A stretch of DNA of 64,000 nucleotides. Source: a virus. Each line of letters starts with the position of its first letter. Positions within the stretch are counted from its first letter, which is position 1. Location: the UHGV virus genome UHGV-1366640, one strand, 5' to 3'. The position numbers and the translations under genes are program-made. The notes beneath the pieces were generated by a model that had not been told where the DNA came from, did no database searches, and was given only the letters and a program-made list of their open reading frames with translations. Below, piece by piece: positions 7,575 through 19,145 of this stretch.

Positions 7575-9572
7575 ATGAACTACCTCGAAAAGAAGAAAAG
7601 AGCAATAATGGCTGTACTTCAGAGGGTTTATTCAGTAATTGGAGTCCCTCCAATAACCTTGCTGAAGTCTCTTGGGAAAAGTCTTAAAGATTATCTCATT
7701 TATGGCAATACTTCTCAGAATGGGACTCCCTCTCCTGCTTCTCCTGTCGAAATTGAAAGTGTCGGCACAAAAACAAATAATCTTTGGGATAAAGGAAATA
7801 CGATAATTTCTGATAATGAAACTCGTTCTTGTTATTTTGGTTTTGATGCATCTTCATATGATTGGATTCAGCCAAATAGAGTGTATTATGTGAGTGAAGA
7901 ACTTGTTCTCTACGAAGATGATACTCGAATTATTCATGGTCAGACAACACCAACAACAAGATTGACTATTCAGATTCTTTATGAGGATGGTACAAATGAT
8001 ATAACTGGTTCTGCAGTTGTATTCAATGATGGTTTGTTTCATAAGGTGTCAGTTTCAATTACTGCTAAAGATAAGCCAATTACGAGAATTGCTATTAGAC
8101 TTGCAGATTACAGCTCAAATTCAGGCGGTGTTTTTCATGGAGAAGCAAGGAATGTTATGCTTACAGCATTTAACTCTGCTGGTCTCTCAATCACACAGAA
8201 ATCCATAAATAATGCAACTGTTATTTCTGATGAAAATAATGTGTATCATGTAAAAGGAAATGACGGACTTAGTGCTTCAGCGTTTTCTGCAGGACAAGTT
8301 AATGTTGGTTTTTCACCTATTTTAACCAAAAACAGACAATTCAATGTAAGCTTCTATGCAACTCGTGTTAGTGATGGAGTTTGGACGAACAGTAGTAGTT
8401 TAGTCTGCCAGCTATTTGTTCAAGATACTAACTATTTTACACAAAATTTCTATGAGTACTCAAAATTTCCTATTGGAGAAAGAGTGCTTATATCATCTAA
8501 GGTGTTTTCAATCACAGAAAGTACTGAGATTTCAAAAGTTGTATTTAGATTAAATGCGATGGAGTGGAAAATTGAAACAGATTCTTTCAGAATAAATTAT
8601 ATCGACGAAAATGACTTGGAATATAAACCTTATGGCTATGAAATCCCAGTTTTATCACACTATCAAGAGAACCTGATTCCATATCCATATGTCACAGCTG
8701 ATCGGGTGATTTCAGGAGTTAAGATCCAGACAACAGGAAATAACTGTATTCATCTTAAAGGAACAGCAACAGGAAATGTGACTTTTGTATTAGCGAATCC
8801 AATCTTGCTAACAGCAGGAGATTATATTTTCTATGTTAGACGTACATCTCAAGATTTTCTTATTGACAGATTTAAATGTGGTGTCTTTCTGAGACAGGTT
8901 GGCACTGCTGTGTATTATAACGCAGTCATAGAAGATCAGTCTATTACTTTGACATCAAGTGACAATTGGTATGTTTACATTACTGTTGCAAGTGGTGTGA
9001 CAGTTGATACAATTTTGAATGTCTATCTTGAGAGAGGAACCAAATTTCCCGAGACAACAAATATCTATCTCAACGAACCATTGAGAAAGATTGGTGATTT
9101 CGTTGATTATATTGATTTTAAGAATCAAAAAGTTGTCAGGAAGATTAAGCGACTTGACTCTGCTAATATAGATTTGAGTCTTTGGAAAGACGATAGTCCA
9201 TTGTCTGGTGGTTCTGAGAATTCCATGAAGTGGGTAAATATTTCTGAAGCTGCGTTTGATGATCTGGATGCTGTTTCTTGTATATGTAACAAGTTTGAAG
9301 GGTTTTCCGACACAGGTTTATCATATGGAGCAATCGGGATGTCAGTTTATCAACATCGTTTAAGGATCTATTATCCTGGAGTAACTGATGACACTCTTGA
9401 TAATTGGAAAACATGGGTTACAGATAATCCTTTCACTCTTAATTATGTTTTAGAAACTCCAACAGAACAGTCAGTTTTTCTCCCTGAAGTCTTAACTGTA
9501 AAAGGCACTTGTGTTTTAGATACAAGAGGGATGTATCCATCAAATATGAATGTAAAATATCTTGGAAAATAG
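7575..9572 (+). CDS. fibre or receptor-binding-like protein
   Basis: 665 aa, beta-rich and Asn/Thr-rich composition. Confidence 0.35.
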   Translation: MNYLEKKKRAIMAVLQRVYSVIGVPPITLLKSLGKSLKDYLIYGNTSQNGTPSPASPVEIESVGTKTNNLWDKGNTIISDNETRSCYFGFDASSYDWIQPNRVYYVSEELVLYEDDTRIIHGQTTPTTRLTIQILYEDGTNDITGSAVVFNDGLFHKVSVSITAKDKPITRIAIRLADYSSNSGGVFHGEARNVMLTAFNSAGLSITQKSINNATVISDENNVYHVKGNDGLSASAFSAGQVNVGFSPILTKNRQFNVSFYATRVSDGVWTNSSSLVCQLFVQDTNYFTQNFYEYSKFPIGERVLISSKVFSITESTEISKVVFRLNAMEWKIETDSFRINYIDENDLEYKPYGYEIPVLSHYQENLIPYPYVTADRVISGVKIQTTGNNCIHLKGTATGNVTFVLANPILLTAGDYIFYVRRTSQDFLIDRFKCGVFLRQVGTAVYYNAVIEDQSITLTSSDNWYVYITVASGVTVDTILNVYLERGTKFPETTNIYLNEPLRKIGDFVDYIDFKNQKVVRKIKRLDSANIDLSLWKDDSPLSGGSENSMKWVNISEAAFDDLDAVSCICNKFEGFSDTGLSYGAIGMSVYQHRLRIYYPGVTDDTLDNWKTWVTDNPFTLNYVLETPTEQSVFLPEVLTVKGTCVLDTRGMYPSNMNVKYLGK

Positions 9573-9590
9573 AAAAGGAGGAATTCATAA

Positions 9591-10226
9591 ATGGCATACG
9601 ATAAAACAGTCTATTCTTTGAATGATGTTCATGTTCAGGTAATTCTTCCAAAAGATTTTAAAATCATTTGTGTTGATTCAAGGAAAAGATCTTTACAATA
9701 TCAAAATTATGCGAATGCTGGTTATTTTGCACTTCTCAAAGATGGGTCAACTCTTCCAACCGGAAATCTTGTTATCAATGGAGATGTTGTCACTTCTGCA
9801 GATTCTCAACCAAATTGGCTCAATACATATAAACATATTCTTTCAACGATTGTTATAGATCACCATGACACTCCAAAGTTCGTTCAAACTTCTAAGATAG
9901 AAAAAGATGAATTCAAGTATGCAATAAGTGGTATTCCAATTATTCATAATGGATATCGTGTTTCCATGGATTCAATCAGACAAGAAGGATATTTCGGAAA
10001 TGAGTGTTATCAAACATGGCACAGCTTCCTTGGTATTCGTGGAAAGAAGCTTGTATATGTTGCTGCTAACATTGGTTTCAATCAAATGGTCTATCTCCTT
10101 GAAGTCCTTGGTATCGAAAATGGTATTAAGTTAGATGGCGGTGGAAGTTTTATCTGTAAGAGTGGAAAAGACTGGCAGATTGCTACATCTGAGAACCGTA
10201 GAATAAATAATATAATAACTTGGTAA
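9591..10226 (+). CDS. phosphodiester glycosidase (NAGPA-like) domain protein
   Basis: 211 aa; motifs FALLKDGS...INGDVV ... IHNGYRV ... KLDGGGS resemble the phosphodiester glycosidase family. Confidence 0.4.
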   Translation: MAYDKTVYSLNDVHVQVILPKDFKIICVDSRKRSLQYQNYANAGYFALLKDGSTLPTGNLVINGDVVTSADSQPNWLNTYKHILSTIVIDHHDTPKFVQTSKIEKDEFKYAISGIPIIHNGYRVSMDSIRQEGYFGNECYQTWHSFLGIRGKKLVYVAANIGFNQMVYLLEVLGIENGIKLDGGGSFICKSGKDWQIATSENRRINNIITW

Positions 10227-12513: not shown

Positions 12514-12984
12514 ATGATGACTGATAATATTCGTCAAAATAATATCTTATTGCTTGTAGATCTCATGGGAAAATCTCCAAATGATTCTTCTCTGAGAGAT
12601 GTATATGATAGATATTTGTGTGGATCAATCACAGATGATCAATTAATGTCAGAAATCATTTCTACAAGCTGCTATGAGGAAATGAAGAATTGGTATAATG
12701 TTATCAAGTGTAAACCAATCTGGAGAACTCTCAAGACAATTATGTCAAATATTGAGTCCCTATCAGATATAGAATTACTCAAAGCGATGAGTTCATTGGT
12801 AACGCAGTTGCTCATTCGCAAGGGTATCAATGATACAATGAATCTTGATCTTTTTGGGTATTCAAAACTCTTGTCAGAACTTTTGAATTATCCTGTCTAT
12901 GGTAAGATCAACCGTGATCTTGTCAAGGATATCGTCTCAAATTATCGGTTAGATAAATTCAAAGAACAAAGAGGTGAAGAATAA
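12514..12984 (+). CDS. hypothetical protein
   Basis: ATG at 12514 follows SD GGAAGGAG; in frame with the track ORF 12478-12984. Confidence 0.4.
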   Translation: MMTDNIRQNNILLLVDLMGKSPNDSSLRDVYDRYLCGSITDDQLMSEIISTSCYEEMKNWYNVIKCKPIWRTLKTIMSNIESLSDIELLKAMSSLVTQLLIRKGINDTMNLDLFGYSKLLSELLNYPVYGKINRDLVKDIVSNYRLDKFKEQRGEE

Positions 12985-14588
12985 TGTCAGATGTTGCTAC
13001 AGTTCCAAAAATTGAAGATCTCAATGATGTTTGGTCAAACAATCTTACAGTAGTTGATCAGCTCAATGAAGTTCCGTCTGGAGATTATGATCCTTCTGTT
13101 GTTCTTTGTACATTAGAAGGGATTCTTTCAGATTATGGTCGTCAAAATAGAAATGGTTATTGGTATTCTGAAGAACTCTGGGATGGTGTAATTAATTCCC
13201 CTGATTTCCAAGAGCTTGTTAAAACAAAGACTCTTTTTGGTGAATCTGATCATCCTATGGAAGTTGAAGATCGTGTTGATGTTCATTATGACTATGTTTC
13301 TCATTGTGTAAGAGATGTTAGAATAGATCGACAAGCTCAACATGTCATTGGAAAGATAGATGTACTTGATACTCCTGCTGGTCGTATTATCTTTACTTTT
13401 GTAAAGTATGGTTCAACTCTTGGTGTTTCTTCTCGTGGTGCAGGAGATGTTATCAATATAGATGGTAAACCTCAGGTTGATCCTAAGACATATCAATTCT
13501 ATGCTTGGGATATTGTTCATCGTCCTTCGAATATAAAGGCTCGAGTTCATCGTACAGAGTCTGTTGATTCCAATTCTCGTATGCTTCGTCTTGTTGAATC
13601 AGCAAAATCTGATAAAAAATCACTTACATGGATCAAGTCATTGGTTGAATCTACAGAAATTCAAGATAAGGAGTCTGTTAGAAAGAAGATCAATGAGTAC
13701 ATGGGTGAATTTCCTGTTGATGATTGTTGTCCTCCTTCCATCTCTGCAGGAGAGCGAGCTGCTTACGAAGCAACGATTTGTAAGTTAAAGAGTGATATTC
13801 AAGCTCTCAGTGAAACTCTTCTGAATTCAAATACTGAAAGAATTCAGAGTGATATGTGTAACAATAATGGATCTAATGATACTTTCATTGATCCTTATAA
13901 TAAATTAGAAAAAGAGATCAATGTTCTTACAGAAGCTGTCAAGATGAATACTGATACTCAATCTCTTGATGATGGTTCTAAGGACGAAATACTCGATCGA
14001 GTTGATGAAGTCTATGCTTCTCTTGTTAAACCAATATCTCAACTTGGTTCACTCAATACAGGTCTTAAGAATCAACTCTCTAAGATATCCACTCAACTTG
14101 ATAATCTCAATTCTGTACAATCACAGCTTTCTGCTGATCTTGTTGCTTCAGTACAGAAGTCATTATCTTCTGCTAAAGATCTCAATGACCTCGAGCAGAA
14201 ATTATCCGATTCAGATAAAGATAATGATGATCTTAAAATTCAGATAAATGATCTTAATGATCAAATTTCTGAGATGAAACAGCAGAGGATCACAGATTCC
14301 CGTAAATATCTTAAATTAAGATGTTCTATGCTTGGTCTTAATGAATCAGTCATCCGTCGTAGATTTAGAAATCTTTCTGAATGTACTTTTGATGATATTG
14401 ATTCTGAATTGGAATCTGCATATTCATCTTCAAGTTCTGTAATTGATACAGATAATTATCAAGACTCTCTCAAAGAGTCCTCTTCACCTGTTGCTGTAAC
14501 TCGTGTAAAGAGGTTGAATGAAAGTGCTGATCATCAGTCTTCTGGTGACAGTGTAGATCTTCTAAGTCTCATTAAAAATAACATCTAA
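12984..14588 (+). CDS. prohead protease / scaffold fusion (candidate)
   Basis: N-terminal region has His/Ser-containing motifs (ESDHPME ... GSTLGVSSRGAG). C-terminal half is a long acidic, Leu/Gln-rich coiled coil. Lies between portal and capsid genes. Confidence 0.4.
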   Translation: MSDVATVPKIEDLNDVWSNNLTVVDQLNEVPSGDYDPSVVLCTLEGILSDYGRQNRNGYWYSEELWDGVINSPDFQELVKTKTLFGESDHPMEVEDRVDVHYDYVSHCVRDVRIDRQAQHVIGKIDVLDTPAGRIIFTFVKYGSTLGVSSRGAGDVINIDGKPQVDPKTYQFYAWDIVHRPSNIKARVHRTESVDSNSRMLRLVESAKSDKKSLTWIKSLVESTEIQDKESVRKKINEYMGEFPVDDCCPPSISAGERAAYEATICKLKSDIQALSETLLNSNTERIQSDMCNNNGSNDTFIDPYNKLEKEINVLTEAVKMNTDTQSLDDGSKDEILDRVDEVYASLVKPISQLGSLNTGLKNQLSKISTQLDNLNSVQSQLSADLVASVQKSLSSAKDLNDLEQKLSDSDKDNDDLKIQINDLNDQISEMKQQRITDSRKYLKLRCSMLGLNESVIRRRFRNLSECTFDDIDSELESAYSSSSSVIDTDNYQDSLKESSSPVAVTRVKRLNESADHQSSGDSVDLLSLIKNNI

Positions 14589-14782
14589 AATGAAATTATG
14601 AAGATTTCTTTTGTATGTTGATGAGAACTCCCTTTTCAAGGATTTTGTTCAAATTGAATCAATTTATCAAGTTGAATGAATTTTATGAATATTTTGGGTA
14701 GATAATCATAGCATGCAATCTTTGATCAGGGTGTTCTTTATTCATTCATTCAAAAGGATAAATAAAGAAAGGATTGATAATT

Positions 14783-16089
14783 ATGGCAAGAACTCTTGCT
14801 GAATCTTATAATGGTGCTTCTGCTAAATTTGGTATAGGCACTTCTGCAAATGCACTTCTTAACAAATGGAACAAGGAAGTTTCGATCATCAATGAAGCTT
14901 TTAATGGAAAAGCAAATCCGGATAAAGTTCTTGGTACTGCTATTCTTCTTGAAAATACTGAAAGACACATTAGAAACTGTGCTACAAGAAATGCAATGTT
15001 CAGTGGTGTCCTCAATGAAGGTACGACTACAGCTGATGTTTCTTACTTCAAACAGTTTGCGTTCAACAACTTGATTGCAGTATATCCGAACCTGATTGCC
15101 CCTGAACTTGTTTCTTCTCAGCCGATGCTGTCAAGAGCTGGTTCTATCAGATACATTCGTGCTATCTATGGTAGCAATAAGGGTGGTATCAAGAAGGGTG
15201 ATACAATGTTTGGTCAGTATTCGCTTGGTGATCATCCTGCAGATGCTACATATTCCAGTGGCAGTGTTGAGGGTGAACTTCTTGGTACTGATGCTGCGAC
15301 TACGAATTTCAATCTCTCCTGGACTCCTGTAATTCCTGGAACTGTTGAAATCTTGTCGGGTGATGGTACTCTCACATATCGTGATGATTCCATTGGTGGT
15401 ATCGTATCTACAGCAGGTGCTGCTTCTGGTAGTATTGATTATGCAACTGGTAAGATCACATTCACTGCTGCTCCTGCTGCTGGATTCACTGCAAACTATG
15501 AATATGACAATGTTGATACTCTCCCGATTCAGGCTCCTGAGATTCAGGTTAAGATAGTTGAGACTCCTGTCTATGCAAAATCCAGAAAACTCAAAACTCT
15601 CTTCAGCTTTGATAGTGATGCTGACCTCTCGAATGATTTTGGTATTTCTCTTTCTGCAGAAATCCTTTCGATGAGTTCTGCACAGCTTAAGAGAGAAATC
15701 GATGATGAGATAATTATAGATCTTAGCACCAAGGGCACAGCTCCCGGGACTTCGTTTGATGCTACAGTTCCTGATGGTGTATCACTTGTTGATCACTATG
15801 CTGGTTTCCCAGCAGCTGTTGCAGTTGCATCGAATAACATCTGGAATGCTACTCAGGTTGGTAATGCATCGTGGATCATCGTTGGTCAGGATGCTGCTAA
15901 CATTGTTGAAGCTATTCCGAGATTCAAATCTTTGGGTGTAGTGAATCCGAAGGGATCTCATCTTGCTGGTTATCTTGGTAATCTTCCTGTGTATAAGTCT
16001 ACTGCTGTTGCAGCTGATGCATGGGTAGTTGGTTATAAAGGTGACAGTTTGTTTGAAGCTGGCTATATTTGGGCTCCCTATCTTCCTAT
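14783..16089 (+). CDS. major capsid protein, exon 1 (as read, the ORF continues to a TAA at 16106-16108 inside the intron)
   Basis: ATG 14783 after SD AAAGAAAGGA. 444-aa track ORF, hydrophilic and Gly/Ala/Thr-rich, follows the scaffold gene. Proposed 5' splice site after U16089. Confidence 0.55.
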
Positions 16090-17414
16090 TGAAAAACAAG
16101 TAGCTTAATTCACAATGAATTAAGAATCCCTCAGTGAACTCAGGGAAACTCCTAAAGCTCAATCTACCAAAGTCATACAGTGATGTGTGACTGGATGATC
16201 TAATCAATCATGTATGGTAACAAGGGTTGAGATGTTACAATGGACAATCCTGATCCAAGTCACTCTTTTGTCAGAGTGAAAGGAGCAACGACTATTAAGT
16301 AGAGCCAAATGGTACGGCAGTCTTGGAGAGCGTAAGTCCGTTTAATTCGAAGTGCTGATAATCATATGATATAGTCTGGTCTATCCAATACTTAATTGGT
16401 ACTGTTAGAGTTGTCAGTAGTCGAAAGACATAGATTGAATTAGTGAATTCTTATTTCCCAACATCCTCACATTGAAGGAGGTGAATGTAGTGTTAAAATA
16501 TCAGTGTCAACTGTGTGACAGATCTACTTTTAAGAACTGGAGAGATTTTGTTACACATTTACGACGACACAAGATCCGTAAGAAAGAGTATTTTGAGAGA
16601 TTTCCGTATATCTATCCAGAACCAGTTGGTGTTTATGGAGTTGACTATGTGACTTGTCCGATTTGTAATGATAATCGTGAATTTCAAAGTTTGACTCAAC
16701 ATTTGATAAATAAACATAAGATCTTAACTGAAGAGTTCTTAGTCAAGTTTCCAGGAAAGAAACTTTTCACAGAAAAGTATTCTAAGATGCGAGCTGATTT
16801 TTGTAGAAAAGGCTTGACAAAGAATTGGGCGGATCCTGAATATCGTAAAAAGAGATCAGAATACTGTTCAGAATTTTTCAGTAAAATTAATTCTGGCAGT
16901 AAGAGACCTGTTCAATCTGAAACAATGAAGAAGACTTTGAAACGATTGTGGAAAGATGAAGAATATTGTAAGAAGCAATCTGAACGAATGAAAGAAAGAC
17001 ACAAATCTGGGGAGCTTGAAAGACAAGTTCTTAATGGTTTCGGGAAGAAATGGATCAAGCATGAAACTTGGTATGGAAAGATAGCAACTCTTAAAAGTTC
17101 TTACGAAGTCTATGTTGCTAAATTTCTTGATGAAAATAAGATCATGTATGAATACGAAAAGATGTATGAGTATCATGACTCTTATTCAGACAGGGATAGA
17201 AAATATTATGCAGATTTCTATCTTCCAGATTATAATATTGTATTAGAAGTCAAAGCTTCTTGGGCAATAGATCGTTATCAAGTTCTAAGAGATAAGATGC
17301 TTGCAGTTTTAGAAACTGGTACACGATATAAATATGTCACTGAACGAGATTTGGGAAAACTCGTCAGCTTGAAAGAATTCGAAATGCTAATTCAGAGTAA
17401 CAATAACGAATGAG
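16090..17414 (+). mobile_element. group I self-splicing intron with embedded homing endonuclease ORF
   Basis: Core elements visible: P2 hairpin CUUAAUUCA-CAA-UGAAUUAAG (16104-16124); P4 CUCAGGGAAACUCC; GUAUGGUAACAAGG; GGACAAUCCUGAUCC; R-like AACGACUAUUAAGUAGAGCC; S-like GAUAUAGUCUGG. Proposed P1 pairs exon CUAU(16086-16089) with IGS AGUAG(16099-16103), including a U16089-G16100 wobble. G17414 would be the omega G. The splice is in-frame. Confidence 0.7.
16472..17413 (+). CDS. intron-encoded homing endonuclease: 2x C2H2 zinc finger + NUMOD-like repeats + PD-(D/E)XK nuclease
   Basis: Two C2H2 fingers (CQLCDRSTFKNWRDFVTHLRRH; CPICNDNREFQSLTQHLINKH). Lys/Arg-rich NUMOD3-like repeats (SETMKKTLKRLWKDEEYCKK...). 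C-terminal ADFYLPDYNIVLEVK is a PD-x6-E-V-K nuclease motif. The true start may be GTG 16490 after SD AAGGAGG. Confidence 0.55.
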   Translation: MKEVNVVLKYQCQLCDRSTFKNWRDFVTHLRRHKIRKKEYFERFPYIYPEPVGVYGVDYVTCPICNDNREFQSLTQHLINKHKILTEEFLVKFPGKKLFTEKYSKMRADFCRKGLTKNWADPEYRKKRSEYCSEFFSKINSGSKRPVQSETMKKTLKRLWKDEEYCKKQSERMKERHKSGELERQVLNGFGKKWIKHETWYGKIATLKSSYEVYVAKFLDENKIMYEYEKMYEYHDSYSDRDRKYYADFYLPDYNIVLEVKASWAIDRYQVLRDKMLAVLETGTRYKYVTERDLGKLVSLKEFEMLIQSNNNE

Positions 17415-17529
17415 TACACAACTTCTTATGGACGAAACCTTCACAGGTCGTCAAGGTTATTCGACCAGCTATGCAAAGAAGATGACAGCGTCAGACTTCT
17501 ATGCAACCAATACTATTACACATTCCTAA
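17415..17529 (+). CDS. major capsid protein, exon 2 (37 codons, unannotated)
   Basis: After the proposed splice, codon AT|T is restored (Ile) and the reading continues TQLLMDETFTGRQGYSTSYAKKMTASDFYATNTITHS to TAA 17527-17529. Too short to appear in the ORF track. Confidence 0.5.
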
Positions 17530-17740
17530 TTTTTGATTAGAGATTCTTTGAGATTCATGGAAGAGAGTTCTTATGTGTGATCATTTACCTCTCCGAAAAA
17601 GGTTTTGCTTTGTTTTCATGTGTAATTCTCTCCTTTGAATATATTTGTTAATACATTGTTTGCTACCTCCAAAATATAATATTACATTCACACAAGAAGC
17701 TTTCCATGGATCTCTTAGTGATCTCTCTGAAAGGATTGAT

Positions 17741-18325
17741 ATGATTTTGTTTAGATTAAGATATCTTGGTAATTCGCATATTTCTACGAAGATTCTTAGA
17801 AAGAATCCTAAAAGATGGTCAGAAGTCAAACTTACAGCTGATCATGATTATATATTTGATCCAGATACTGATGTTTTGTCAGAAGCAACTCTTGCATATT
17901 ATAGATCGTTAAAAAGACTGAGAATTCTTCTTGTAGATGATTCCTGTGCGGATGTCGAAGAGATGACGATCTCTCAGATTCAGGAACCAATCAATGAAGA
18001 AATTCCTGCTCAATCAGTAGATATTAACGAAGAAGAAGCTCCCCTTTATGAGGAAGACACAATTAATGATTTTGTAGAAGAAACTCCTGTAGCTGATGAA
18101 GAATCTGTTAGTGAAGAAATTCCTGAAGAGACTGCTCAAGCCAATGAGATCAGCGATGAAGAACTCTCTGAATTCATTGATGCTTCCTGTGAGGATATCA
18201 ATGCTCTTAAGAAGTTTGCGGAAGATCTCAATGTTGAAATTTCTCCAAGAGTTAAATCTGCAGAAAAGATTATTGCTAAGATCATCTCAGAAAAGAGAGA
18301 TGAAGTTGTTAGTATGATGAAATGA
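17741..18325 (+). CDS. highly acidic protein (internal head protein candidate)
   Basis: ATG 17741 after SD GAAAGGA; C-terminal half extremely Glu/Asp-rich. Confidence 0.4.
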   Translation: MILFRLRYLGNSHISTKILRKNPKRWSEVKLTADHDYIFDPDTDVLSEATLAYYRSLKRLRILLVDDSCADVEEMTISQIQEPINEEIPAQSVDINEEEAPLYEEDTINDFVEETPVADEESVSEEIPEETAQANEISDEELSEFIDASCEDINALKKFAEDLNVEISPRVKSAEKIIAKIISEKRDEVVSMMK

Positions 18326-18359
18326 ATTTGAATATTCTAAGAAATGGAGGTGAGATAAT

Positions 18360-19145
18360 TTGACGAATCTTGAGTTAGGTGAATGGATCAAAAGACAGTT
18401 AGGATATCCAACTCGGAATGTTGAGTTGACTCAGGCACAATTGGAAGATTGTGTCAAATTTGCTCTTAAGGAAGTTCAGCCATGGTTCACATCATACTAT
18501 TATCTCACTCTTGATCTTAATGGTCGTACCACTGTTGATCTTTCACAGGAGAATGTTTTTGAGGTTACAGATGTTATCAAAATCCCGAATAATCTATCTA
18601 TGACAGGAAGTACATCTACTGTCGATGATCCATTTTCATACCCATATGGAACAGGAGTTGTTGGTGGATATGGTCTATCAATGTCAACTGTCTATTATAG
18701 TAGATTGACGAATCATGATATACATCATGTAATGAGTGCATATGCTCAACAATATAATCAATCATTTTATACGAAGCTTGCACAAGTTCTTGCTCAACGA
18801 ACTATGGGGAGTCTTGCTCCTTCTTTGAATTTTCAATTCAATCGTGACAGCAAGATGCTATTCATAGATCCAGGATATCCTGCTGCAAATACAGTGACTC
18901 TCGAGTACATTCCATATCTCTCAGATGTATCACAAATTATTGATGAGAGATATCAAAGATGTGCAGAGGATTTGGCTCTTGGACAGGCTCTTATCGTTCT
19001 TTCTCGTGTTGTTGGTAAATATGATGTTTCGAATGCTCCATCAAGGATCAATTTTGAAAATTATCGTACAGATTCAGAGAGTCTGTTACAAAGAGCAAGA
19101 GATGAGTTGAAACGAATAAGCCGTACGACCTATATAACTGATTAA
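18360..19145 (+). CDS. hypothetical structural protein
   Basis: 261 aa, TTG start after SD GGAGGTGAG. Confidence 0.4.
   Translation: MTNLELGEWIKRQLGYPTRNVELTQAQLEDCVKFALKEVQPWFTSYYYLTLDLNGRTTVDLSQENVFEVTDVIKIPNNLSMTGSTSTVDDPFSYPYGTGVVGGYGLSMSTVYYSRLTNHDIHHVMSAYAQQYNQSFYTKLAQVLAQRTMGSLAPSLNFQFNRDSKMLFIDPGYPAANTVTLEYIPYLSDVSQIIDERYQRCAEDLALGQALIVLSRVVGKYDVSNAPSRINFENYRTDSESLLQRARDELKRISRTTYITD

Follow-up and report, generated by a model that had tools for sequence, protein, structure and literature searches.

The 64,000-nucleotide stretch of the virus genome UHGV-1366640 analysed here (64 kb, hereafter the window) carries on its plus strand a gene for a gp23-type major capsid protein, read as an open reading frame (ORF) at 14783-16108, with a T4-type portal gene and a prohead protease gene upstream and a gp13-type neck protein gene downstream. 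The capsid ORF matches the Pfam Gp23 profile with 151 bits over profile positions 14-327 of 376, and because the match ends at position 327 its C-terminus appears to be missing. The apparent stop codon is followed by about 380 nucleotides without a long ORF, a 307-residue ORF and finally a 39-residue ORF (17410-17529). An initial annotation of the window had proposed that a group I intron with a homing endonuclease splits the capsid gene, and that the capsid as read (441 or 444 residues) is truncated. Both proposals are borne out: an extended Gp23 match, the conservation of exon 2, an intron-less allele and nucleotide covariation make us highly confident that positions 16090-17408 (1319 nucleotides) constitute a mobile group I intron with an endonuclease gene, inserted in the gp23-type capsid gene (Table 1).

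Capsid exons and the splice junction

Joining exon 1 to exon 2 raises the Gp23 match to 161 bits and extends it over profile positions 14-356 of 376. The exact junction is given by an intron-less allele: the 90% cluster of the window's truncated protein contains a 475-residue capsid protein, P0107, from another metagenome (locus L005), whose coding sequence shows 94.8% nucleotide identity to that of the window and has no insertion. At the site the L005 DNA reads ...TTGCCGATC ATGAGTACACAA (...CCGATC ATGAGTACACAA; intron-less site sequence TATTTGCCGATCATGAGTACACAA), and the window DNA reads ...CTTCCTAT[TGAAAA...AACG]AATGAGTACACAA, i.e. ...CCTAT[1319 nt]AATGAGTACACAA. The rule that exon 1 of a group I intron ends in U and the intron itself in G, taken together with this alignment, leaves a single solution, with U16089 as the end of exon 1 and G17408 as the omega G, and the reading frame is restored when the exons are ligated at these positions. 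The spliced capsid, starting from the ATG at 14783, has 475 residues; the Ile codon is regenerated as AU|A, and the protein gains this Ile and 39 residues, so that it reads ...APYLPI-MSTQLLMD... at the junction (junction-spanning peptide forms APYLPIMSTQLLMDETFTGR and EAGYIWAPYLPIMSTQLLMDETFTGR). It equals the L005 allele in length and at the junction. The spliced RNA is expected to read CCUAU|AAUGAGUACA (CCUAU|AAUGAG), corresponding to an intron-less ("cured") window junction of TATCTTCCTATAATGAGTACACAA. The initial annotation thus correctly anticipated an in-frame splice, but its regenerated Ile codon (AUU), its 37 added residues and its 476-residue product have to be replaced by AUA, 39 residues after the regenerated Ile and 475 residues.

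APY[LM]P[IV]-[ML][STAN]-TQL is the sequence across the junction in more than 30 capsid homologues, and the full-length capsids of 65-71% identity recovered in a search of 5.8 billion proteins all read ...APYLPI-MS-TQLLMDETFTGRQGF.... The nearest annotated phages, Bacillus phage vB_BceM-HSE3 and Listeria phage LIS04 (about 40% identity), have an uninterrupted capsid that aligns with exon 2. Exon 2 is the counterpart of the conserved C-terminus in all homologues, and few parts of the protein are more strongly conserved. The homologue alignment suggested in the initial annotation therefore supports its claim of a truncated capsid, although the junction given there leaves a two-residue gap. In public databases the true 475-residue product is mis-called for this lineage, which is represented by a 441-residue capsid and a 39-residue orphan (P0001 and P0105); the N-terminus MARTLAES is identical in P0001 and P0107. 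A megablast search of 14000-19000 against GenBank phages gave no match, and neither the capsid nor the endonuclease turned up relatives when scanned against IMG/VR.

Other origins of the interruption were considered and set aside. The capsid frame meets a stop at 16106-16108, 17 nucleotides into the insertion, so that an intein could not be co-translated in frame. The same stop, together with the restoration of the conserved C-terminus by exon 2, led us to reject a programmed frameshift and a simple gene truncation.

Conserved fold and reduced core of the ribozyme

The full Rfam Intron_gpI model (positions 1-253) aligns at 16078-16398 on the plus strand with 35.6 bits (E 5.4e-7 when the region alone is scanned, 2e-5 over both strands of the 64 kb). 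This is the sole Rfam match in the window at E<=0.05. The paired (P) and joining (J) segments aligned by the model are the very ones listed in the initial annotation, namely P2, P4-J4/5-P5, P5'-J5/4-P4'-P6, the 5' strand of P7, and J8/7 with the 3' strand of P7; all are present, in the right order and where it had placed them. Its description of this region as GC-enriched holds in comparison with the endonuclease ORF and intergenic DNA (0.39-0.40 versus 0.30-0.36) and fails in comparison with the capsid exon (0.40-0.46).

Table 1. Coordinates of the features of the split capsid gene and its intron (window positions)
Feature	Position	Strand	Remarks
Capsid exon 1	14783-16089	+	435 codons and AU of the Ile436 codon; Pfam Gp23 151 bits; junction from L005
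Group I intron	16090-17408	+	1319 nucleotides: core 16090-16452, ORF loop, 3' tail 17373-17408
P1	16086-16103	+	exon CUAU (16086-16089) and U16090 pair with guide AGUAG (16099-16103)
P2 hairpin	16104-16112 / 16116-16124	+	CUUAAUUCA / UGAAUUAAG
P3 5' strand, UCAGUG	16131-16136	+	pairs with 16353-16358 (UGCUGA); crosses P7 as pseudoknot
P4-J4/5-P5 segment	16139-16152	+	CUCAGGGAAACUCC
P4	16140-16145 / 16248-16253	+	from covariation analysis
P5	16150-16152 / 16242-16244	+	from covariation analysis
P5a/b/c three-way extension	16158-16231	+	GUGA tetraloop on P5b
P5'-J5/4-P4'-P6 segment	16242-16256	+	GGACAAUCCUGAUCC
P6 / P6a	16254-16284	+	5 of 6 P6a pairs covary
P7 5' strand, GACUAU	16290-16295	+	pairs with 16371-16376 (AUAGUC); invariant in 7 copies
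P7.1 (GCC/GGU) and P7.2 (ACGG/CCGU)	16304-16341	+	between P7 and P3'; C-G to U-A in L011
P3 3' strand, 12-nucleotide stretch in place of P8, P7 3' strand	16353-16376	+	16353-16358, 16359-16370 and 16371-16376
J8/7 and P7 3' strand	16368-16376	+	GAUAUAGUC
P9.0 5' half, GU	16379-16380	+	from covariation analysis
P9 three-way junction	16381-16433	+	P9 16381-16384 / 16430-16433; P9a 16385-16399; P9b 16420-16429, GAAA loop
P9.1 5' strand	16436-16452	+	pairs with 17373-17394; closes ORF loop
Putative homing-endonuclease ORF	16490-17413	+	307 residues; GTG start; stop TGA (17411-17413) in exon 2
P9.1 3' strand	17373-17394	+	inside the endonuclease coding sequence
P9.0 3' half (AC) and omega G17408	17406-17408	+	G in 9/9 copies
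Capsid exon 2	17409-17529	+	third Ile base, 39 codons (MSTQLLMD...TITHS), stop

Nine intron copies were found at the same capsid codon: that of the window, six (L006-L011) located through endonuclease homologues of 43-74% identity, and two more distant ones (L012 and L013). In all nine a U precedes the 5' splice site and the last intron base is G. The first seven were aligned as "mini-introns" from which the ORF loop was removed, and from this alignment RNAalifold recovers P2, P4, P5, P5a/b/c with a GNRA loop, P6/P6a, P7, P9 and the long helix closing the ORF loop, predicting 106 pairs of which 45 show double changes. A structure specified by hand includes, besides these helices, P1, the pseudoknot strand of P3, P7.2 and P9.0. 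Over the seven copies 96.6% of its cells are paired and 51 of its 106 base pairs show compensatory changes; with slid partners these values fall to 33-40% and to 4-9 pairs, and none of 500 shuffles attains the observed paired percentage, compensatory-change counts or covariation score. The core helices P3, P4, P5, P6 and P7 occur in canonical order with the P3/P7 pseudoknot, each supported by covariation or invariance in the seven copies, and P7 agrees with the Rfam consensus AGACUA...UAGUC. Compensatory changes are seen in P1, in P3 (4 of 7 pairs, with 95% of cells paired), in P9.0 and in the long-range helix that loops out the ORF, P9.1, where 11 of 17 base pairs covary (e.g. UGAAUUAG/CUAAUUCA versus UGAAUCAA/UUGAUUCA); all nine pairs of P5b and five of the eight of P5a likewise covary. 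The two short conserved hairpins P7.1 and P7.2, a subgroup-IA-like trait, occur alongside the P5abc-like extension.

The splice sites are embedded in this fold. As initially proposed, the 5' site lies after U16089, which forms a U·G wobble with G16100 of the internal guide; this U·G is invariant in all seven copies, and the P1 pair at -3 is U-A in six of them and C-G in L008, where a synonymous CCU-to-CCC exon change (exon CCCAU) is matched by a change of the guide from AGUAG to AGUGG. In P9.0 six copies have a G-C pair where L011 has A-U, and this covariation places the omega G at window position 17408. Two pairings predicted by RNAalifold were discarded: that of the guide GUAGCUU (16100-16106) with GAGUAAC of the 3' tail (17395-17401), which shows no double compensatory change and conflicts with P1, and that of 16316-16319 with 16353-16356, which was dropped for the covarying P3 and P7.2.

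We propose the usual group I pathway, in which the capsid gene would be transcribed through the intron, with the RNA folding as P1-P2-P3-P4/P5(abc)/P6-P7-P7.1/7.2-P3'-P7'-P9 and the long P9.1 helix looping out about 920 nucleotides. The P1 guide AGUAG would hold U16089 and an external guanosine would attack after it; the omega G17408, positioned with the help of P9.0, would then be bound, and the freed exon 1 would attack after G17408. The resulting ligation, AU|A (CCUAU-AAUGAG), would yield the messenger RNA for the 475-residue capsid.

Several observations weigh against this interpretation. The score of the window copy lies below the curated gathering score of the family (RF00028, 50 bits), so that a default Rfam scan reports nothing; indeed no Rfam family reaches its gathering score anywhere in the 64-kb window. 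The single-sequence folding energy of 16082-16470 is unremarkable against shuffles (z = -1.43), and thermodynamics alone therefore gives the fold no support. Of the conserved core helices the window copy lacks P8: P3' and P7' are just 12 nucleotides apart, and five of these are the invariant J8/7. By inspection it also has no recognisable P10 (AAUGAG versus AAACAA), and its P1 loop is minimal. The encoded endonuclease, taken singly, reaches no Pfam gathering score, that of PF05367 included. Finally, that this element splices and that its protein cleaves DNA is what we infer from comparative sequence data. The epithet "textbook" in the initial annotation was hence too generous for an intron with a sub-threshold score and without P8 and P10; its anticipated Intron_gpI match was obtained, but short of the gathering score.

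The reduced form is not confined to the window. P8 hairpins of 25-35 nucleotides are present in L008-L011 and absent from the window, L006 and L007, and inspection of the sequences suggests that a P10 of 3-5 base pairs is possible in L008-L011. The P8-less form is found in at least three independent samples (window/L004, L006 and L007), which are about 7% divergent from each other, show compensatory changes in P5a/b/c and keep their ORFs intact. As the reduced form recurs, covaries, retains its ORFs and interrupts a highly conserved C-terminus, the window intron probably splices in vivo despite the missing P8. Loss of P8 was considered as the full cause of the low Rfam score and rejected: P8-bearing L008 scores 45.6 bits, but P8-bearing L009-L011 miss E<=1e-3 in a pooled scan, so that it can be at most part of the cause. 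The gathering score is exceeded by the introns of L012 (73.1 bits) and L013 (85.1 bits), which occupy the same capsid site and carry a homologous endonuclease, and the capsid intron annotated in Bacillus phage SP-15, with 38 bits, comes close to the window copy. A search of the literature for group I introns that naturally lack P8 yielded no relevant report. The locus offers a compact natural system, in which intron-plus and intron-minus alleles form a pair and a ribozyme without P8 and P10 stands beside sister copies that keep both helices. More generally, sub-threshold group I introns escape default Rfam scans and thereby break essential phage genes in metagenome annotation.

Three other explanations of the locus were weighed. 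The one closest to ours retains the intron as described but takes G17414 as the omega G, as the initial annotation did, giving a 473-residue capsid reading ...PI-TQLLMD.... Position 17414 is indeed a G, and splicing there is in frame; such a splice would, however, remove a Met-Ser pair that neither the 95%-identical intron-less allele nor any close homologue lacks; L009, L010 and L011 have C at the corresponding position; and the P9.0 covariation favours G17408, six nucleotides upstream. We regard this version as extremely improbable, and of the originally proposed extent, 16090-17414, we retain the 5' end and move the 3' end to 17408.

It is also conceivable that there is no splicing at all, and that insertion of an endonuclease gene has split the capsid into co-assembling polypeptides of 441 and 39 residues, the latter translated by coupling at the ATGA of 17410-17413. 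T4-like phages are known to have genes that a free-standing endonuclease gene has split, the endonuclease stop overlaps an in-frame ATG at the start of exon 2 (GAATGAGT), and gene callers do predict the 39-residue ORF (P0105). Yet the Met of exon 2 is ancestral, since intron-less homologues have it; exon 2 starts with GTC in L010 and, in a micro-exon context, with TTG in L012/L013, while the architecture stays the same; no Shine-Dalgarno sequence lies upstream of 17410; and a conserved, covarying ribozyme fold with U and omega G boundaries would lack a reason for its upkeep. These points leave the two-polypeptide explanation with very little probability. Just as improbable is that the intron, having lost P8 and P10, is a decayed, splicing-dead relic and the genome around it defective or an assembly chimera. 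The absence of P8 and the sub-threshold score are what one would expect of such a relic, but the recurrence of the divergent P8-less form in independent samples with compensatory changes and intact ORFs, noted above, speaks against it, as do the complete structural module of the 98-kb contig and the high conservation of the capsid C-terminus.

The predicted endonuclease and its overlap with the 3' splice site

The terminal loop of P9.1, on the 3' side of the catalytic core, contains the endonuclease ORF. The ORF is preceded by a Shine-Dalgarno sequence, GGAGG (16477-16481, six nucleotides 5' of the GTG at 16490), and has an ATG at the same start position in L006. Its exact database proteins, P0110 and P0111, are labelled "hypothetical". 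The ORF is predicted to encode two C2H2/Ros-type zinc fingers, a helical linker and a nuclease domain of the T7-endonuclease-I-type PD-(D/E)xK class. A classical C2H2 finger at residues 6-29 precedes an invariant finger, C-x2-C...H-x4-H (C56, C59, H71 and H76), and a catalytic-type motif, E223...D242...E253-x-K255, is invariant in 15 homologues. A profile of these 15 matches T7 endonuclease I (1m0d, E 4.5e-7), with E223, D242, E253 and K255 aligned to the catalytic residues, and the Ros zinc finger (2jsp, E 1.5e-3). Across the family Pfam matches were obtained to ROS_MUCR (12 of the 15), DUF7487 (9) and Phage_endo_I (PF05367; 6). NCBIfam and single-sequence PDB searches with the window endonuclease gave nothing; the matches to T7 endonuclease I and Ros emerged solely with the family profile. 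The protein further matches phrog_22215, in common with the endonuclease of the SP-15 capsid intron. Its AlphaFold2 model (predicted local distance difference test score 85) has an alpha/beta C-terminal domain, and the best Foldseek matches in the PDB are PD-(D/E)xK nucleases, namely the catalytic domain of I-Bth0305I (3r3p_B, probability 0.99), followed by PvuRts1I, TnsA and Vsr. Searches of Pfam, PHROG and NCBIfam found no LAGLIDADG, GIY-YIG, HNH or His-Cys signature in it, and tblastn found no second copy in the 64-kb window.

In a survey of the PD-(D/E)XK superfamily from 2012, Phage_endo_I appears solely as a Holliday-junction resolvase, and the only groups with homing endonucleases are the Vsr-like and Ssp6803I ones (PMC3424549); six homing-endonuclease families and the Endo VII type are recognised in a paper of 2018 (PMC6083498). 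Because these surveys place no homing enzyme with Phage_endo_I, the window protein appears to belong to an uncharacterised PD-(D/E)xK homing-endonuclease lineage, recorded so far only as the SP-15 annotation. I-Ssp6803I (PF11645) and I-Bth0305I (EDxHD or Vsr-like) are likewise intron-encoded and have the restriction-endonuclease-like fold (PMC3424549, PMC6083498), but by sequence the window nuclease groups with T7 endonuclease I/Phage_endo_I, with the canonical E...D...ExK rather than the EDxHD or Ssp6803I type, and unlike them it has C2H2/Ros-MucR zinc fingers as its N-terminal DNA-binding part. This nuclease family, unstudied as a homing enzyme, could supply new scaffolds for cutting DNA at long sites.

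The initial annotation had placed the ORF wholly inside the intron. With G17408 as the omega G, its stop codon falls in exon 2, and the ORF depends on exon sequence for its termination. The final 40 nucleotides of the endonuclease coding sequence contain the 3' strand of P9.1, P9.0 and the 3' splice site, and the splice site is straddled by the last sense codon (G|AA) and the stop TGA (capsid codons A-TG-A-GT). This overlap recurs in L006-L009 and in L012/L013, whose exon 2 begins TTTGACC; in L010 and L011 the endonuclease stop lies 3-5 nucleotides inside the intron. Given that the last codon and the stop straddle the splice site, full-length endonuclease would be made only from unspliced RNA, and because ribosomes finishing the ORF must unwind P9.1 and P9.0, translation and splicing would be mutually exclusive on any one RNA molecule. 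A further observation concerns translation initiation: CAUCCUC (16463-16469) can pair with the Shine-Dalgarno region, GAGG(UG), at 16478-16483, although this is not kept in all copies. Such pairing may sequester the ribosome-binding site of the endonuclease, as reported for T4 intron ORFs.

All endonuclease homologues with retrieved surroundings sit at the same capsid site as that of the window, and intron-plus and intron-minus capsid alleles coexist (window versus L005). The last 30 nucleotides of exon 1 contain six synonymous differences between the window and L005, where about 1.5 are expected; this excess could reflect co-conversion, constraints imposed by P1 or resistance of the target site. 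The coexistence of alleles, the strict site association and the synonymous cluster all suggest intron homing. The looped-out ORF would provide a site-specific DNA endonuclease that, in mixed infections, would cut intron-less capsid alleles near CCUAU|AAUGAG, and repair from the intron-bearing copy would spread the intron.

Related introns and known systems

Close relatives contain at least four insertion sites in the capsid gene, three of them within 25 nucleotides, and the capsid gene of L012/L013 has up to five related introns and a 10-nucleotide micro-exon. A second group I intron, absent from the window, lies 25 nucleotides upstream of the window's site in L006 (384-736) and L007 (up to 424), relatives with about 93% nucleotide identity to the window phage; it corresponds to window 16064|16065, with the junctions GCUGGCU|...AACCG|AUAUUUGG. 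It passes the Rfam threshold in both (69.8 and 64.3 bits), is ORF-less and 353 nucleotides long in L006, and has core sequence blocks in common with the window intron. A third site, 10 nucleotides upstream (window 16079|16080), is occupied in L015 (1636-2165), and also in L016 and L017, by an ORF-less intron of about 530 nucleotides with a normal P8. This intron looks like a recombinant mosaic: over the 5' half (P3-P6) its identity to the window intron is about 88%, and over the 3' half it is similar to the upstream intron of L006.

More endonuclease genes split the same capsid gene further upstream, in L015 (237-1286), L008 (1-602), L010 (129-962), L011 (659-1525) and L012 (625-1479); they match DUF7487, Phage_endo_I or ROS_MUCR, and an example site, ...IIDL[SA]|TKGTAPG, lies near window codon 315. 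The last third of the capsid gene carries tandem Intron_gpI matches, five in L013 (404-3897) and four in L012 (1205-3804), several of them far above threshold (90, 85.4 and 85.1 bits), with a 10-nucleotide micro-exon between adjacent introns (AUAUGCCUAU in L012 and ACAUGCCUAU in L013). A TnpB-like (Cas12f1-like_TNB) gene is found downstream in L012 (4330-5883). Pseudoalteromonas phage H101 (KR534323, about 8019-9836; L018 1436-3253) has five tandem Intron_gpI matches (80.3, 66.4, 54.5, 39 and 30 bits) in a region annotated with a small hypothetical ORF only. This region precedes an "HNH homing endonuclease Phage intron" gene, the 5' end of which is overlapped by the last, 30-bit match; one P4-P6 region of H101 is 70% identical to window 16143-16296.

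A wider reading would make the enzyme of the window intron the founder of an uncharacterised homing family combining zinc fingers and a T7-endonuclease-I-type nuclease (phrog_22215/DUF7487), which, together with recombining group I ribozymes, colonised many sites in gp23-type capsid genes, and would hold that the window's core, without P8 and P10, still splices enough to supply the major capsid protein. We put forward this combined proposal only tentatively, as its chances seem to us slightly less than even. The dense intron load in the capsid genes of these relatives bears on the part that selfish elements play in setting limits to genetic exchange, or in competition, between co-infecting phages.

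Among the systems already known, the T4 nrdD (sunY) and td introns belong to subgroup IA2, with P7.1/P7.2 and a looped-out endonuclease ORF that has its own ribosome-binding site, and nrdD resembles the window intron in having its ORF on the 3' side of the catalytic core. Unlike the window intron, the T4 introns have P8, lack a P5abc-type extension, encode GIY-YIG enzymes (I-TevI and I-TevII) and reside in genes of nucleotide metabolism instead of a capsid gene. Closer is the intron of SP-15 (a Thornevirus; KT624200, with its coding sequence annotated as a join), known from annotation as far as we found, in which a gp23-type capsid gene (41% amino acid identity) carries a group I intron and a "putative endonuclease" (AMM44832) of the same family as that of the window (30% identity over about 250 residues, BLASTP E 7e-24). 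The SP-15 insertion, however, follows about codon 350 instead of codon 436, and its endonuclease lacks the first zinc finger.

Group I introns in capsid genes are also established in mycobacteriophage LittleE and lactococcal phage Tuc2009; in LittleE, whose intron has an endonuclease gene, splicing was proven by reverse-transcription polymerase chain reaction and N-terminal protein sequencing (PMC3706429). These share with the window a self-splicing type of intron in a highly expressed major capsid gene, and the U/G boundary rule holds in LittleE (PMC3706429). Their capsids, in contrast, are HK97-like siphovirus proteins unrelated in sequence to that of the window, the ribozymes are unrelated, and the LittleE endonuclease is of the HNH type and is transcribed in the opposite direction (PMC3706429). 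PhiPA3 gp210 offers a parallel in another phage and gene and with another nuclease: there too an intron-encoded endonuclease resides in an essential phage gene, and it could play a part when co-infecting phages compete (PMC11620839). Given the established examples in Tuc2009, LittleE and SP-15, the window intron belongs to a known kind, from which it is distinct in its codon-436 gp23-type site, its nuclease family, the overlap of its ORF with the 3' splice site and its reduced core.

Elsewhere in the 64-kb window, ARAGORN detected no transfer RNA or transfer-messenger RNA genes. The prohead protease gene (12984-14588, plus strand) encodes 534 residues with a Peptidase_S77 (T4 gp21-like) domain at residues 44-197, followed by a C-terminal region of about 330 residues that is acidic, Ser/Asp-rich and coiled-coil-like, and may represent a protease-scaffold fusion.

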